A stretch of DNA of 64,000 bases, taken from positions 14,840 through 78,839 of IMG/VR virus record IMGVR_UViG_3300043464_001679. One strand, 5' to 3'. This stretch comes from a virus. Position numbers and translations under genes: made by a program. Positions 3,449 to 59,498 of this stretch are shown here, piece by piece. The number at the start of each line of letters is the position of its first letter. Position 1 is the first letter of the stretch. The notes under the pieces were generated by a model. The model was not told where the DNA came from. It made no database searches and was given only the letters and a program-made list of their open reading frames with translations.

Positions 3449-4342
3449 ATGGCTACAGGAAATTACGGAACAATAAGACCGGCTAACGTATCACCAGATG
3501 ATATAGATATTTTTTATACCTACTCACCTAGTAGAGACGTACCACCTACAGTTCCCGTTAGAGTTTTAGATGCTAACTCTTTTTTAACACAATTTAATAA
3601 CCCATTAAGCGTTAATGGAGTACAACCAATATTGGGCGGTCTATATAACTTAAATTTACCGGCAAACCTTTTTTCTTCAAAAGGTTACTACACAATAATG
3701 ATAAGACCTAAGCAATACTATGTAACAATAGCTGATTGTGGTGTTTTATCTGCTTATCCTGATATAAAAGGTATTGTATTTAATACAAATGACTTACCAC
3801 CAATCTTAGCACAAAATGATTCTATGGTTGGTTATAGAATAGAATATTTGGATGACACTAATCAAATATTACCGAATACTTATAGAATTGTAACATCAGC
3901 TAATTTAACTGAGGCGGTTAATCAAAATTTATCTAATACCTCACAAAAAGCTATTAGATATAGATTTAATGACAATTCTAATTTATTGTTCTGTACATTA
4001 ACACCTTCCTCACCTTCAGTAGTAACACCAAATAAAATACCTTTTATTGGTTCACCTGGACAATCGGTTGTAATAACAAACACATTTTTTAATCCAATTA
4101 CTATTGAATTAGAAATGGTTGAACATGATATTGAGACATTAGCTTACGGTTTATTTGGTAACCAAAGTAAAAGTATTGCTGATGGTAAATACACTATCTA
4201 CGATTTTGATAATAGAATTTATAAACAATACAATCTTTACGAAATACAAGATCAGTTTACTAGTCAACCACTTTATGAAATTAGAGAAGAAGTTGATGAA
4301 ATTGATGATACTAAAGATTTTGATACAATAACTACCCTTTAA
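3449..4342 (+). CDS. Putative baseplate/tail structural protein
   Basis: 297 aa, tightly packed in the structural operon. Confidence 0.55.
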   Translation: MATGNYGTIRPANVSPDDIDIFYTYSPSRDVPPTVPVRVLDANSFLTQFNNPLSVNGVQPILGGLYNLNLPANLFSSKGYYTIMIRPKQYYVTIADCGVLSAYPDIKGIVFNTNDLPPILAQNDSMVGYRIEYLDDTNQILPNTYRIVTSANLTEAVNQNLSNTSQKAIRYRFNDNSNLLFCTLTPSSPSVVTPNKIPFIGSPGQSVVITNTFFNPITIELEMVEHDIETLAYGLFGNQSKSIADGKYTIYDFDNRIYKQYNLYEIQDQFTSQPLYEIREEVDEIDDTKDFDTITTL

Positions 4343-54554: not shown

Positions 54555-55505
54555 ATGAAGGAATATTACAAAATTTTAGGGTTAAATGAGGGGGCCAGTG
54601 ATGATGAAATAAAAAAGGCCTATCGTAAGATGTCTAAAAAATATCACCCCGACCTAAATCCTAATAATACTGAAGCTGAGGAAAAATTTAAACAGGTAGT
54701 AGAAGCATATGAAATTTTAACAGGAAAACAAAAACCGAAAAACCAAGGAGACCCTTTTGGTGGGTTCAATCCTTTTGGTGGGTTCAATCCTTTTCAAAGA
54801 GGTAATGCTAAAGCAAAACCTTTAAAATTAATAATAGAAGTTGATTTAGAAGAGGCTTATTATGGTACAAATAAAGTAATAAATTTCCAAGTTACAGACC
54901 CATGTAATAAATGTAATGGTGAAGGTGGCTTTGAACCACAAACTTGTAATCAATGTGGTGGTAATGGGTATATAGCACAAGGACCTTTTATGTTTGGTTG
55001 TAATAATTGTGGTGGTAATGGTAAACTATTTAAATCTGTGTGTTATACCTGTAATGGTAATGGGTTAATTAATGGAGTTAAAAATATAGAGGCTAACATA
55101 CCCAAAGGTACTACTCAGGATAGTTTATTTATTCAACCTAATATGGGTAATTGGTCAAAGGGTGTTGGTAGAGGAGATGTTTATTTTGTTATTAAAATTA
55201 AACCTCATCAAATCTATGAATTAGACGGTTTAAACCTAAGAAGAAAATTAGATATACCAGTTTTAGATATATTATTGGGGGTTGAATCAGAATTTGAGAC
55301 TTTGGATGGTTCTGTGAAAATTAAAATCCCTAAATTATCTGAAATAAATAAAACATTTAGATTAAAAGGTAAGGGTTTTATTGATGGGTCCACAAATATT
55401 ATAGGTGATTTATATGTAACCCTAAACCCAATTATACCTAAAGAAATTAATGAGTTAGAAGAGGTTAAAATAAAAGAATTAAAAGAAATGCCTAACTTTA
55501 ATTAA
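54555..55505 (+). CDS. dnaJ: DnaJ chaperone
   Basis: J domain with HPD, G/F region, four CxxCxGxG repeats, C-terminal domain. Confidence 0.92.
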
Positions 55506-55528
55506 GGATATTTATTAATAAAATATTA

Positions 55529-56728
55529 ATGAAAAAACAATTAATAAATGAAATAATGGGTGTGCCAAAAGTTCTTGACCCGTGGGTTAGAGCTTTCACT
55601 GAAATTATGTTAGATATTGTTGAGGAAGTATCTGAATTAGGTTGGGAACAAAGGGGTGAAATAAATTACAATGACCCTGACACTGGTGAAGAAATAGAAG
55701 CCGAAATATTTAAAACAGAAAATATATCTTTATCAGGTAAAGTATTCATGGAAGAAATAATGAAAAAGATGGGTTTTAATGATATACAAGAGTTTATCAA
55801 ATCCCAAAATTTTCAAGAGCTACCAATATGGAGACCAACATTAAATGTTTCTATTGTAGCAGTACCATCAGCAATTTTAAGTAAAGAAGAAAGTACCATT
55901 CAAGCGTCTGTAAGTTTAGATTTAGATAAAGGATTTTCTAATTTAGGTAAGGCAAAAGTTGTATCCGAAATGGTTTTTAACTTTAATTTAGTTGTAGAGT
56001 TAGAGGGTGTTTCTGAGAAAGACATTACTGAATTAGAAGAGGCGGTGTCACACGAATTATTACATGCTTACCAAAAGATAAAACAATTAAAAGGTGGTGG
56101 TTCTAGTCATTTTGGTCGTGAAACCGCTTTAAACGCTTTAAGTAACAACCCACATTTTAGTGAAATAAATATTGATTGGTGGTCAGAATTTTTAAATTTA
56201 GTTTATTTACACCTATCTTTTGAAATAAACGCTAGGATAAATCAGTTATACTATAGATTAAAAAGAAAAAACATTAATAATACTGAAGATTTTTTACGTG
56301 AACTACATAAGAGTTATTTATGGGAACAAATGAAAAAACTAGAGAATTTTAATGCTGAAGAGTTTATTAATAAATTTGAAGTCCCTGAAGAGGAAATGGA
56401 TTTTTCTAATCCATTAGCTATGTTACATAGTTTAATACATGGTTCACGTTTTAAATCTTTGGGTGTAGATACCAGTTCAAAAGAAGAAGCAATTAAATCA
56501 CTTATCGACCTTTGGGATAATATATTATCAGTAGGTGTTAGAGCTATGGGTAACATGGGTGCTAACATAACAATGGATAATGTACCACAAAAAGCTAAAG
56601 AAGACCCTTATGTATTTTTTAAATTTTTTGAAAATAGATTCCATAAAAAGGCTGAGACTTGGAAAAAGAAAATGTATAGAATTGGTGCTTTAATTTTACA
56701 AGAAAAAAATGATAGCACTTTACAATGA
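55529..56728 (+). CDS. HExxH metallopeptidase-like protein, putative head-packaged
   Basis: SHELLHAY ... EINAR; N-term MKKQLINE; ATATTTAT upstream. Confidence 0.55.
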   Translation: MKKQLINEIMGVPKVLDPWVRAFTEIMLDIVEEVSELGWEQRGEINYNDPDTGEEIEAEIFKTENISLSGKVFMEEIMKKMGFNDIQEFIKSQNFQELPIWRPTLNVSIVAVPSAILSKEESTIQASVSLDLDKGFSNLGKAKVVSEMVFNFNLVVELEGVSEKDITELEEAVSHELLHAYQKIKQLKGGGSSHFGRETALNALSNNPHFSEINIDWWSEFLNLVYLHLSFEINARINQLYYRLKRKNINNTEDFLRELHKSYLWEQMKKLENFNAEEFINKFEVPEEEMDFSNPLAMLHSLIHGSRFKSLGVDTSSKEEAIKSLIDLWDNILSVGVRAMGNMGANITMDNVPQKAKEDPYVFFKFFENRFHKKAETWKKKMYRIGALILQEKNDSTLQ

Positions 56729-56778
56729 TAAAAATTAAAAGTATCATTGTTTAAATAATTAGAAAAAAAATAAATAAA

Positions 56779-57192
56779 ATGATTAAAGAAGGTAGCAAAG
56801 TAAAAGTACACTACACAGGTAGATTTGAGGATAATAATGTTTTTGATTCATCTGAAGGTAGAGAACCAATTGAATTTACAGTTGGTGAGGGAATGTTAAT
56901 TCCTGGTTTTGAACAAGGTGTTATGGGTTTACAGGCAGGTGATAAAAAAACTGTTGAGTTGGAACCTGAAAATGCTTACGGAGAAGTTAGAGAAGAATTA
57001 ATTAATCAAGTACCATTGGATAGATTACCAGAGGGGGTACAAGAAGGCCAAATGTTGGAAGCACAAACAGAAGCAGGACCAATACCTGTTCTTGTTACAG
57101 AAATTACCGATACAACTGTTACTGTTGACGCTAACCACCCATTAGCTGGTAAAAAATTAATTTTTGATTTAGAGATTGTTGAAATAGTCTAA
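56779..57192 (+). CDS. FKBP-type peptidyl-prolyl isomerase (SlyD/SlpA-like)
   Basis: VHYTG..FDSS, IPGFE, VDANHPLAGKKLIF. Confidence 0.92.
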   Translation: MIKEGSKVKVHYTGRFEDNNVFDSSEGREPIEFTVGEGMLIPGFEQGVMGLQAGDKKTVELEPENAYGEVREELINQVPLDRLPEGVQEGQMLEAQTEAGPIPVLVTEITDTTVTVDANHPLAGKKLIFDLEIVEIV

Positions 57193-57215
57193 TTTTAAAA
57201 AATCATAAAAAAATT

Positions 57216-57246
57216 AATCCCATATGTTATCATGTGGGATTTTTTT
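57216..57246 (+). terminator. Intrinsic terminator
   Basis: AATCCCATATG-TTAT-CATGTGGGATT plus T run. Confidence 0.7.
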
Positions 57247-57260
57247 ATATCTTTGTATCT

Positions 57261-57488
57261 ATGTGGACAGCTAAAGAAACAACAAGAGAGTACAAGGGAA
57301 TCACCATTACGAAGTATGAAGGATCTAAAGTTAAAGAATCCTTCAAAAATAGAGATCCACGTACAATACAAAAAGACGATAACAGATTCACCAAATGGTA
57401 TCTATATGAAACTATTGTTAATGGTGTTAAATATAATTCAGAAAAGTTGAGAGATGTAAAAGATTTCATTGATACTCAAACAAAATGA
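57261..57488 (+). CDS. Hypothetical protein
   Basis: ATG 57261 (MWTAKE) just after TATCTTTG 57248-57255. Confidence 0.6.
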   Translation: MWTAKETTREYKGITITKYEGSKVKESFKNRDPRTIQKDDNRFTKWYLYETIVNGVKYNSEKLRDVKDFIDTQTK

Positions 57489-57679
57489 AAAAACCTTGTA
57501 AAGAATGTCCCCACTTTATTCGTAATCGTCACAACGATACTATTGTTGATTTTGCTGAAAGAACTGGTAAGAAACACAATTGTCATATGACGGAAGGAAA
57601 AAAAGATTTGTGGAATGTTAAAGATGAAAAATTAGAATGTTATGGAAGTAATAGACACAGCAACAAAACTAACCAGTGA
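57485..57679 (+). CDS. Small Cys/His zinc-binding protein
   Basis: PCKECP..HNCHM..C. Confidence 0.6.
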   Translation: MKKPCKECPHFIRNRHNDTIVDFAERTGKKHNCHMTEGKKDLWNVKDEKLECYGSNRHSNKTNQ

Positions 57680-57737
57680 TAAAATTACAAGGTTTGTTGA
57701 AAGATTGAAAAAAATTAAAATTAATATAAGATTATGA
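57642..57737 (+). pseudogene. Truncated paralog of the 59812 gene
   Basis: MEVIDTATKLTSDKITRFVERLKKIKINIRL* versus METKDTATDKSMEKLKVFVDRLNKIGIEVKL. Confidence 0.6.
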
Positions 57738-57919
57738 AAAGATTACACGTAAAATTTATCAAATGGTTGTCCAATAAATTTGGTTATAAAATTGTGATGT
57801 TAAAAGGTAAAAATGGTACAACCACCATCGAAGGAGACCGAGAAATATTACCTTATGTGGATATAACAGGATACTTTTTCAAAAAAGAACCACTTAGACG
57901 TAATGTTGGAAAAAATTGA
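57734..57919 (+). CDS. Hypothetical protein
   Basis: 61 aa. Confidence 0.5.
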   Translation: MKRLHVKFIKWLSNKFGYKIVMLKGKNGTTTIEGDREILPYVDITGYFFKKEPLRRNVGKN

Positions 57920-57922
57920 ATA

Positions 57923-57970
57923 TAACGTCCGATGATAAACAATCGTTTTAATGTTGTTTATCATTTGTTA
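57923..57970 (-). repeat. attC-like site A
   Basis: TAAC GTCCG ATGATAAACAA TCGTTTTAATG TTGTTTATCAT TT GTTA. Confidence 0.8.
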
Positions 57971-58037
57971 TAACCAGTATTTTTGTGGGATGGTTGATAA
58001 ATTAGAAATAAATTAGTATATTTGTGAAAAAGTAAAT

Positions 58038-58250
58038 ATGGATAATAGAAATAAAGTGCATTGTTTAGTATATGATTATACTGGTGACACTAATAATGTT
58101 TATGTAAGAGTTTCAAAAGTTTATGAAGTAGATGAAAATGTTTATGTTAAAATACAGAAACCTGTTGTGAATAAAGGTTTACTTCAATATCAACATAGAG
58201 ATTTATGTGGTACTGGTTGGGATGAGGGTGAAAAAAAATATTGTGTATAA
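58038..58250 (+). CDS. Cassette 1 hypothetical protein
   Basis: 70 aa; own TATATTTG promoter at 58017; stop is the TAA of site B. Confidence 0.6.
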   Translation: MDNRNKVHCLVYDYTGDTNNVYVRVSKVYEVDENVYVKIQKPVVNKGLLQYQHRDLCGTGWDEGEKKYCV

Positions 58251-58371
58251 CGGTTTGCAGCTAAACGAGGTGGCGTTTTTCACTACAAAATATTATTAAA
58301 AACACAAATTATGAATACAAAAAAAAAGTTATTAGAAAACGAAAACGAGCCATCTTGTTTAGGTGCTGTTA
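58248..58371 (-). repeat. attC-like site B (long loop)
   Basis: TAAC GGTTT GCAGCTAAACGAGGTGGC ... GCCATCTTGTTTAGGTGC T GTTA. Confidence 0.75.
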
Positions 58372-58544
58372 GCGGTAGTGATTTAGAAAAGGCTGATATG
58401 TGGTATTGCTTACATAAAAACCACGTAAACAAGTTGTTTAATAGCACTAAAAACGAATACCCACCAACCGAATTAGAAGATGTTAAAAACCCTAACCTAT
58501 GGAAAGCAGAGCATTGGAGATGGTTTCTAAATAATTACCGCTAA
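58311..58544 (+). CDS. Cassette 2 hypothetical protein (starts inside site B)
   Basis: 77 aa; EPSCLGAVSGS is encoded by the hairpin arm; stop is the TAA of site C. Confidence 0.6.
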   Translation: MNTKKKLLENENEPSCLGAVSGSDLEKADMWYCLHKNHVNKLFNSTKNEYPPTELEDVKNPNLWKAEHWRWFLNNYR

Positions 58545-58589
58545 CGGTTGAGTGTAAAAAATCGTTTTAATGTTTTTTACACTTTGTTA
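58542..58589 (-). repeat. attC-like site C
   Basis: TAAC GGTTG AGTGTAAAAAA TCGTTTTAATG TTTTTTACACT TT GTTA. Confidence 0.8.
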
Positions 58590-58633
58590 TACACAGTCAA
58601 AAATTATTTATAAACAAATTAAAATCACTTGAT

Positions 58634-58828
58634 ATGGAAATTACAAAAGAAATGATTGAAAAGGAACTTGGATATGAGATTAATAAATTCAAGTTAGAAC
58701 CACTTTATAAAGATGGTGAATGTATTGGATTAAATGTTAAAGTTGAACCGAAGAAGAAACTTGAATTTATTAATACTACGATAACTATTGGTAAAACAAG
58801 TGATTTTAATACCGATGAAAAAGAATAA
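58634..58828 (+). CDS. Cassette 3 hypothetical protein
   Basis: 64 aa. Confidence 0.6.
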   Translation: MEITKEMIEKELGYEINKFKLEPLYKDGECIGLNVKVEPKKKLEFINTTITIGKTSDFNTDEKE

Positions 58829-58842
58829 TTTTTTATTGTGTA

Positions 58843-58890
58843 TAACGTCTGATGATAAACAATCGTTTTAATGTTGTTTATCATTTGTTA
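58843..58890 (-). repeat. attC-like site D
   Basis: Identical to site A except one base (GTCTG vs GTCCG). Confidence 0.8.
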
Positions 58891-58939
58891 TGTGTAGGTG
58901 TGAATATTAAATCTTAATATTTATATATAAAAGAAAATA

Positions 58940-59350
58940 ATGAAAGATTTGAGACATTTTATTAAAACCACAATTCGAGAATTCTTGAATGAGGATACTA
59001 ATAAGTTTGATTTTATTATAGGTAAAAAATATGAATTTGAAGATTTACCTAAAAAAATTCAGAATGATATTGAAATACAATTCGATGAATATTCCGAATT
59101 ACAACCAATGGATTATTACTATGTTTGTAAAATATTAAAACCAGAAGAAATCGAAGAATATTTAATGAGTGTTTTTGGTGAATATGAAATAGGTGATGTT
59201 TTGGAAGAACCATATATGAAAAAACTAATTAAAGATATTAAAAGAAACGGATTAGACTACCCATCTGTTGGTATAGAAGGTAATCATAGAGCTTTAGCTC
59301 ATTGGTATTTAGGTAGAGATTTACCTTATCTTGAAATGATTGAAAGATAA
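58940..59350 (+). CDS. Cassette 4 ParB/sulfiredoxin-like domain protein
   Basis: LIKDIKRNGLDYPSVGIEGNHRALA..LG; N-term IKTTIREFLNE; ATATTTAT at 58917. Confidence 0.6.
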   Translation: MKDLRHFIKTTIREFLNEDTNKFDFIIGKKYEFEDLPKKIQNDIEIQFDEYSELQPMDYYYVCKILKPEEIEEYLMSVFGEYEIGDVLEEPYMKKLIKDIKRNGLDYPSVGIEGNHRALAHWYLGRDLPYLEMIER

Positions 59351-59366
59351 GCGGAACACTTACACA

Positions 59367-59455
59367 TAACGGTTGGGTGTATATGTAGTTTTTTATTTGG
59401 AAATGTCAAAACTTATTCGTACCTTTGTAAAAAAAATTACATATACACCTTGTTA
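59367..59455 (-). repeat. attC-like site E, with a promoter in its loop
   Basis: TAAC GGTTG GGTGTATATGTA ... TACATATACACC TT GTTA. Confidence 0.8.
59396..59427 (+). promoter_or_regulatory. Bacteroidota -33/-7 promoter inside site E
   Basis: TTTG-20 nt-TACCTTTG. Confidence 0.7.
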
Positions 59456-59498
59456 TAAGTATGTATTATTTTTGTTTTACCTTATAAAAAATTAAATT

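Follow-up and report, generated by a model that had tools for sequence, protein, structure and literature searches.

We consider it likely that a short stretch of the viral DNA analyzed here is an orphan five-cassette array of an integron-like system by which large lake phages of Bacteroidota type shuffle genes, with the mechanism proposed below. This reading builds on observations of the anatomy of the units, the covariation of their stems, the linkage of such sites to a recombinase in related phages, the positions of the junctions, and an inverted gene orientation. The DNA under study (the window) measures 64,000 nucleotides and forms the final 64 kb of a 78.8-kb IMG/VR virus record with an estimated completeness of ~24%. 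Five hairpin sites lie on its + strand between positions 57923 and 59709, each followed by one small + strand ORF (70, 77, 64, 136, and 65 aa), so that the full array is longer than the segment covered by a preliminary description of this DNA. A unit of the proposed system would span from one TAAC to the next and would comprise a hairpin site, a short arm (y), a small gene read from the strand of the site, and a second arm (x) whose sequence complements y. The features of the array are as follows.

57923 to 57970, + strand: site A, a short-type hairpin that heads unit 1 (TAAC-GTCC, 12–13 bp stem, loop TCGTTTTAATG, T-GTTA; ΔG −10, z −3.7)
58038 to 58250, + strand: unit 1 gene, 70 aa, no family; the stop is the TAA of the site B TAAC
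58248 to 58371, + strand: site B, a long-type hairpin (TAAC-GGTTT, 17-bp imperfect stem, 74-nt loop, T-GTTA); the 3′ arm and GTTA are translated
58311 to 58544, + strand: unit 2 gene, 77 aa; the ATG lies within loop B and the stop is the TAA of the site C TAAC
58542 to 58589, + strand: site C, a short-type hairpin; loop as in sites A and D, stem fully compensated relative to both
58634 to 58828, + strand: unit 3 gene, 64 aa; the unit recurs in contig L038 with other neighbors at 98.9% identity
58843 to 58890, + strand: site D, a short-type hairpin, 95% identical to site A; the identity stops at GTTAT
58940 to 59350, + strand: unit 4 gene, 136 aa, no family
59367 to 59455, + strand: site E, a medium-type hairpin (20-bp stem, 36-nt loop, z −3.75)
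59396 to 59427, + strand: promoter-like motif of Bacteroidota type, TTTG-N20-TACCTTTG, inside loop E
59499 to 59696, + strand: unit 5 gene, 65 aa; homologues in relatives adjoin several hairpin types
59706 to 59709, + strand: terminal TAAC closing unit 5; the preceding x arm pairs with the y arm after site E

The five sites share a common plan, namely TAAC-G, 3 to 4 unpaired bases, a stem, a loop, the second stem arm, T or TT, and GTTA. Sites A, C, and D have the 11-nt loop in common; C, B, and E differ in stem sequence yet keep the structure. The DNA folds of the hairpins gave z values of −3.7 to −5.2 relative to shuffled controls, and the hairpins are not due to chance. A pattern search found no further TAACG..TGTTA hairpin site in the remainder of the 78.8-kb record. 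What the preliminary description had observed could be confirmed in the sequence. It had placed the start of ORF 58311 inside a hairpin loop, and the ATG indeed lies in the 74-nt loop of site B, with a frame that crosses the 3′ arm and the GTTA core (..NEPSCLGAVSGS.., ..CLGAVSGS..). The promoter-type motif that it had described in loop E is present, and the two ORFs said to end on the TAA of the next TAAC are those at 58038–58250 and 58311–58544, which stop on sites B and C, respectively. As it had also stated, the leftmost gene is headed by a hairpin (site A) and the rightmost has none downstream, being followed only by the TAAC at 59706–59709, after which neither a TAACG..TGTTA hairpin nor an attI-like motif was found.

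Comparison of ten window ORFs with Pfam and PHROGs gave a sole strong match, that of ORF 59812–60081 to phrog_38683, and one marginal PHROG match for ORF 57485–57679 (E about 1e-3); the five cassette ORFs had no match in either collection. A megablast search with positions 55000–63000 against GenBank phages returned no match.

The hairpins belong to a family that is found in many phages. A search of IMG/VR contigs with the exact pattern of the short-type site detected it in at least 118 stretches of viral contigs, many of which are 250 to 325 kb long, and a generic finder was then used for all loop classes. Three classes emerged, with loops of 9 to 12 nt, ~33 to 36 nt, and ~70 to 120 nt. The intermediate loops often bear promoter-like motifs, as in site E, and the long loops hold an ATG and N-terminal codons, as in site B. 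TAACG and TGTTA are invariant in all short sites that were compared (53/53), with TAAC and GTTA paired, and 10 of the 20 stem pairs of these 53 sites show double compensating changes. The inner stems of short-type sites fold without any unpaired base, which means that extrahelical bases are absent; the one recurrent unpaired feature is a bulge in the 5′ arm beside the core, which measures 3 nt in the folds and has 1 to 2 nt opposite. Of 413 distinct sites, 377 folded better on the + strand than on its complement, with a mean difference of 2.6 kcal/mol. The site finder allows G·T pairs and rejects A·C pairs, which exaggerates this asymmetry somewhat, and the conserved G·T pairs on the sense strand are equally compatible with RNA folding. 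Short hairpins are near-identical across many phages, three sites have chimeric arms that combine two different types, and short-type hairpins have been swapped between homologous cassettes of one protein cluster (cluster 46). Both the swaps and the chimeric arms fit homologous exchange inside the repeats.

To establish what moves as a unit, the cassettes of related phages (508 cassettes, 325 protein clusters) were compared. Protein clustering was used because pairwise identity over 40-nt flanks is biased by conserved 5′ leaders. The preliminary description had proposed that the mobile unit is a hairpin plus its downstream gene, and had named as a check whether homologous genes keep their upstream or their downstream hairpin. 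Homologous genes in different contexts had the upstream hairpin in common and the downstream one not in 72 pairs (11 clusters), against five pairs (four clusters) for the reverse, which supports that proposal. When the next gene differed, the downstream hairpin was the same in only 3 of 81 pairs, and when the previous gene differed, the upstream hairpin was the same in 25 of 58. Two unrelated neighborhoods (L225 and L009) contain a module that, between one TAACG and the next, is nearly 100% identical, and individual window units occur at 96 to 99% identity in other contigs with different neighbors (L005, L025, and L038).

The limits of cassette similarity point to the same unit. Of 17 non-redundant cases, 11 had their right end at the next TAACG and two at the 3′ GTTA of that site; the left end fell on TAAC in 7 of 18 cases and inside the hairpin in eight, and in two the hairpin was not shared. 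These boundaries pile up at TAACG even between sites of different types. An alternative model, in which a gene travels with its downstream hairpin as in a classical cassette, had been based on the identity between sites A and D, which stops at GTTAT; it was dropped in the light of the co-travel and boundary comparisons. An ORF begins inside the site in 61% of the long-loop sites, and 78 of 97 such ORFs read the GTTA as GTT (Val) plus A, giving leaders such as ..LNISDVSGS... In units whose ORF starts in the loop, the hairpin is thus, judged by the reading frame, physically part of the downstream gene. Family-wide, the stop codon coincides with the TAA of the next TAAC in 65 of 365 cassettes.

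The two ends of a cassette are complementary to each other. Arm y, which follows GTTA, and arm x, which precedes the next TAAC, form 8.24 Watson–Crick pairs out of 12 on average, whereas shuffled partners form 4.38 and the two flanks of a single site 4.17. At least nine x/y pairs occur in 228 of 365 cassettes, where about six cassettes would be expected. Two examples from the window are the following.

58368 to 58389, + strand: y arm of unit 2, pairing with the x arm at 58524–58545 (22 nt, 91%)
58586 to 58608, + strand: y arm of unit 3, pairing with the x arm at 58824–58846 (23 nt, 91%)

When x-TAAC is joined in silico to the unit's own hairpin, the hairpin becomes 10 to 24 bp longer and the predicted ΔG falls in all five window units, from −12.8, −15.6, −15.8, −10.2, and −16.3 kcal/mol for units 1 to 5 unjoined to −14.3, −30.6, −21.7, −19.6, and −27.9 kcal/mol after joining at TAAC. 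The lower energies predicted for the circle junction fit circular intermediates; they do not tell which hairpin goes with which gene. Contigs from four sequencing runs break at the hairpins, where the read depth is about 5- to 45-fold that of neighboring gene bins. Contig joints such as 58890 to 59367 and 57972 to 59470 were considered as evidence for excision and rejected, as they are single contigs with short sides that probably derive from related phages.

Every site in the window reads TAACG..TGTTA on the + strand, which is also the strand of the genes, in line with the polarity given in the preliminary description. Among the relatives, 359 of 365 cassettes have their gene on the strand that reads TAACG. 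A Vibrio superintegron that was found among the distant relatives of the recombinase (IntI of 320 aa, 505 bits on TIGR02249) served as a control: with the same finder, its repeats (TAACG..TTTGTTA) lie upstream of intI on the intI-sense strand, and its cassette ORFs are on the opposite strand. The comparison supports the view that the phage system has the classical geometry of sites and recombinase with the genes flipped, and thereby also the earlier proposal that the units are inverted relative to classical cassettes. IntI cleaves within 5′-AAC-3′ of the folded bottom strand, bacterial cassettes are mostly promoterless, and cassettes in the opposite orientation have never been seen in bacterial integrons (PMC5027507).

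Since the phage genes point towards the recombinase end, a promoter of the Pc type could not drive them, and each unit would therefore need its own start signals. Candidates for such signals are unevenly distributed. In the window, in-loop signals occur in only two of the five hairpins (B and E); sites A, C, and D have the conserved 11-nt loop, and any promoter of their units would lie after the hairpin. The full TTTG-N20-TACCTTTG pattern occurs 13 times in the window versus 6.6 expected, which is weak evidence alone, and the motif recurs in loops of relatives that have other stems. Only about 21% of the short- and medium-loop cassettes have a host-type −7 motif (TAnnTTTG) no more than 100 nt from the ATG; its density is 3 to 4 times that in coding sequence, and in medium sites it is mostly inside the loop. 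Other loops carry a different common motif, AACTTTAAA..TTAG. Self-expression of each unit, as inferred in the preliminary description, is plausible and a reasonable inference, for which there are no data on starts of transcription or translation; the sequencing runs that carry this DNA are 24 lake or freshwater DNA runs, with no RNA run listed.

A candidate enzyme was found in relatives of the window phage. In three of five related genomes (85–100% estimated completeness), a tyrosine recombinase of 266 to 267 aa lies directly downstream of the array, in the same orientation. Across 51 loci with close relatives of this recombinase, the upstream side holds 237 sites, all of them on the recombinase's sense strand and none on the other; the seven downstream sites are confined to one locus with a gene stump and likewise include none on the opposite strand. 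All recombinase-linked arrays end in x-TAAC/TATATTATATA, with the slash marking the junction, 50 to 53 nt before the recombinase gene. To the right of this last TAAC is a conserved TAT(A/T)(A/T)TATATA-like sequence, and the left side is variable. A variable left and a conserved right are what a fixed point of insertion would leave behind, and the junction would act as an attI equivalent.

The recombinase has the catalytic R..HxxR..H..Y motifs. Its nearest solved relatives are XerA (4a8e, 9e-33), to which it aligns without a break, and IntI4 (2a3v), to which it aligns in two pieces; it has 33 residues where IntI4 has 81, so that the IntI-specific domain is missing. On TIGR02249 it scores 157 to 164 bits in two separate stretches, below the NCBIfam cut-off of 265 for integron integrases. 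Given the unbroken XerA alignment, the split IntI4 alignment, and the sub-cut-off score, the enzyme is classified by sequence as Xer-like and not as an IntI. No recombinase above 37% identity was found in cultured phages. A search of the window's own 78.8-kb record with PF00589 and with the recombinase protein of relatives revealed no tyrosine recombinase or remnant, and attI-like motifs occur in the window at chance level only.

How the array came to its present position can be read from its flanks. The closest backbone relatives lack the array, and in them nothing separates gene 57485 from the homologue of gene 59812. In the window the following two features are found instead.

57642 to 57716, + strand: left scar of the inserted block, a stranded resident 5′ end of gene 59812 that matches relative L124 at about 97% identity
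59812 to 60081, + strand: flanking gene (phrog_38683), a chimera whose 5′ part came with the array and whose 3′ part is resident

The stranded 5′ end together with the chimeric gene indicates that a block from 57717 to about 59886 entered by recombination within the flanking gene. The recombinase and short-type sites are absent from all five closest backbone relatives (73–80% identity). The window array is an orphan, with no recombinase nearby, and judged by these flanks it was inserted as a block by homologous recombination; a site-specific enzyme would not have been needed for this step. As to the cargo, most of the 100 largest cassette proteins of the relatives have no Pfam family. Those with matches include DNA methyltransferases of several classes, Mom, the Thoeris inhibitor Tad6, RNA ligase and RNA repair domains, ADP-ribosyltransferases, and MazG, and the predicted cargo thus has a counter-defence flavour.

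In the mechanism that we propose, the coding strand would fold and the recombinase would carry out strand exchange at the TAAC of this strand. The unit would be released in circular form, with x-TAAC brought next to the hairpin and GTTA-y of that unit so that a single long hairpin results, and the circle could then be re-inserted at the attI-like site TAAC/TATATTATATA before the recombinase gene. Each unit would have its start signals either within the loop, as in sites B and E, or shortly behind the hairpin. What is inferred here comprises the chemistry, the choice of strand, the formation of circles, and the expression of the units. We also lean, with somewhat less assurance than for the array itself, towards a broader formulation: a mirror image of the integron, in which a Xer-type recombinase devoid of the IntI domain would take up units made of a hairpin and a gene with their own promoter and would rearrange them by acting on the TAAC of the coding strand in its folded form, the whole serving as a bank of counter-defence genes, with the window array as an orphan offshoot that spread as a block by homologous recombination.

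The main rival to site-specific exchange of folded strands at TAAC is homology-driven shuffling like that of PeSL cassettes. The hairpins would then be regulatory cassettes (terminator plus promoter) that are shuffled by general homologous recombination only, and the recombinase would have a different task, for instance integration or the resolution of genome dimers. In T4-type phages, recombination between promoter/stem-loop repeats reorders ORFs and yields mini-circles (PMC2839356, PMC4122927), and the backbone studied here is T4-like in look, with DUF2828/TROVE relatives in KVP40-type phages. Behind the stems comes TTTGTTAT, the near identity of short hairpins in many phages and the existence of chimeric arms would be expected, and the window array itself moved as a block by homologous recombination. 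Measured by the PeSL hallmark of near-identical repeats of promoter plus terminator, the picture is mixed: sites A and D are 95% identical, C, B, and E diverge in stem sequence, and the promoter motif was found in only part of the units. Yet exchange driven by homology does not need compensating stem changes around an invariant core of 4 to 5 nt, it gives the cassette-specific complementarity of x and y no role, and it does not explain why the sites are polarized 237:0:7:0 relative to the recombinase or why the attI-like TAAC junction is fixed. Boundaries moreover concentrate at TAACG, also across site types. We therefore regard this explanation as unlikely, although it is the strongest competitor.

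Still less probable is that the structures act in RNA only, with x and y pairing round each gene and the hairpins cutting a polycistronic transcript into protected single-gene messages, like the RNase III sites in T7 or in ribosomal RNA operons. All structures are on the sense strand with conserved, G·U-compatible pairs, the x/y stems enclose whole genes, and the hairpins are positioned exactly between genes, all of which such processing would predict. It would not account for the linkage to a recombinase and the conserved junction before it, nor for the recurrence of whole units in unrelated neighborhoods with breaks at TAAC. A transcript that starts from a loop promoter, or that serves a loop ATG, lacks the 5′ arm, so that the hairpin cannot form there, and no Rfam family matched the hairpins even at a permissive threshold. 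We give hardly any credence to the idea that the hairpins are miniature transposable elements or IS200/IS605-type ends moved by a single-strand HUH transposase. The subterminal hairpins, the short conserved cleavage-like motif, and the conserved 11-nt loop on variable stems do resemble HUH substrates, but the sites occur only in co-oriented arrays beside a tyrosine recombinase and are not dispersed. No Y1 transposase (PF01797) was detected in five related genomes (85–100% estimated completeness) in a search that did detect control genomes and that did not include the record of the window.

Site-specific exchange at TAAC would place the phage system closest to integrons, above all to sedentary chromosomal ones of the Vibrio superintegron type. 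Common to both are a tyrosine recombinase at one end of a co-oriented array (in the relatives), imperfect hairpins with an AAC/GTT core, an asymmetric unpaired spacer and a variable terminal loop, a junction at the AAC of the recombinase-sense strand, a conserved attI-like junction adjoining the recombinase gene, and diverse, mostly ORFan cassettes (325 clusters for 508 cassettes); the geometry of sites relative to the integrase is identical to that of the Vibrio control. The differences are equally clear. The phage enzyme, of Xer-like type, is without the IntI-specific domain through which extrahelical bases are read, and the phage stems have no such bases. The 7-nt consensus RYYYAAC/GTTRRRY is reduced to TAAC/GTTA (4/7 positions conserved), and the complementarity of the phage cassette ends reaches 10 to 24 bp. 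The phage genes are on the folding strand, and the unit is a site plus a gene with its own, inferred, start signals, as opposed to a promoterless gene plus a site. Finally, the carrier is a large phage of virulent type.

The window, with five co-oriented sites and cassettes and no recombinase nearby, resembles CALINs, groups of attC sites that have no integron integrase. CALINs have been reported in phages, where they were called with canonical attC models, recombined with IntI1, and carry DNA methyltransferases (PMC9892861). The sites described here differ from these in forming a separate family that is tied to a non-IntI recombinase and in having inverted genes. In PeSL cassettes, each accessory gene is flanked by a stem-loop and a promoter, and mini-circles may form (PMC2839356, PMC4122927). 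Like the present units, they carry small accessory genes, lie in plastic regions of large myovirus-like genomes, and are shuffled between relatives; unlike them, they rely on sequence homology and have no dedicated recombinase, covarying stems, cassette-end complementarity, or attI-like site. We found no paper that describes the present system, the nearest being the phage attC clusters (PMC9892861) and the PeSL cassettes.

A partial likeness is offered by the integration of CTX-phi, in which the host enzyme XerCD, a Xer-family enzyme without the IntI domain, acts on a folded single-stranded phage hairpin; CTX-phi integration is a single event, without a cassette array. Integron chemistry is thought to need the IntI-specific domain, which reads extrahelical bases, and promoterless cassettes in a single orientation. 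Here, a simpler Xer-like enzyme is tied to sites without extrahelical bases, and the genes face the “wrong” way and must bring their own start signals. If the system is active, the capture of cassettes through folded hairpins evolved, or was simplified, outside the IntI family, and the recombinase and its sites would offer a compact pair with which strand choice could be tested and which could serve as a tool. Phages would then also possess their own counterpart to the defence-gene “biobanks” of bacterial integrons, stocked with counter-defence genes.

The array of five hairpin and gene units (+ strand, window 57923-59709) lies between the two copies of a direct repeat roughly 75 nt long. The resident 5′ end of the flanking gene 59812 (59812-60081, phrog_38683) forms the left copy, with approximately 97% identity to the related locus L124, and the copy on the right, a diverged allele, was brought in with the array. 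Beyond the array lie a DUF2828/TROVE-like gene, a subsequent non-coding stretch, and two tandem Mom-like GNAT genes. In the relative L133, a further hairpin array begins about 750 nt past the Mom-like genes, a position equivalent to one just past the end of the window's contig. The features concerned, including the bins used for metagenome depth, are as follows.

57642-57716, left copy of the direct repeat
59812-59886, right copy of the direct repeat
60476-62430 and 62671-64000, DUF2828/TROVE-like gene, subsequent non-coding stretch, and two tandem Mom-like GNAT genes
57870-57963, 58528-58621, 58810-58903, and 59374-59467, depth bins that hold hairpins

In four lake-water metagenomes, the summed contig depth in the bins of hairpins A, C, and D was approximately 5- to 45-fold that of neighboring gene bins, and the excess in the site E bin was smaller. 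The same sites seem to be common to many co-occurring phages.

“Empty” cassette bodies were observed directly before the recombinase gene at three related loci (L215, L217, and L234) and also at L015 and L049. These bodies consist of GTTA, 3 to 5 nt, the 11-nt motif TCGTTTTAATG, 3 to 5 nt, and TAAC. The same motif caps the short hairpins (loops of 9–12 nt), and it also caps the stem formed by the complementary arms at cassette end and start (x/y) when the hairpin loop holds cargo. Three short-type sites (in L010, L063, and L112) have 5′ and 3′ arms from different stem types that do not pair with each other; these sites look like products of exchange within the conserved loop. The loop of a + strand site in L085 (starting near 3822) contains two stretches resembling a tRNA T-arm, GGTTCGATTCC and GGTTCGACTCC, and tRNA-like genes may be among the cassette cargo.

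Several arrays in L257-L260 (e.g., IMGVR_UViG_3300033995_001164) terminate at the attI-like junction (x-TAAC followed by conserved sequence), beyond which the recombinase gene is reduced to its first 38 codons. These arrays are decayed platforms.

TAACG..TGTTA sites whose loops measure 100 to 150 nt also occur as arrays in two Paenibacillaceae genomes.

L292:9399-16372, array in a Fontibacillus sp. BL9 contig
L296:9406-14918, array in a Paenibacillus haidiansis contig

In both contigs, the array is adjoined by a recombinase that lacks the IntI insert and has the same orientation as the cassette genes. The Fontibacillus enzyme is XerA-like and shares 41% identity with the 267-residue Xer-like tyrosine recombinase of the related phages. 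The two arrays look like integron-like arrays in Bacillota.
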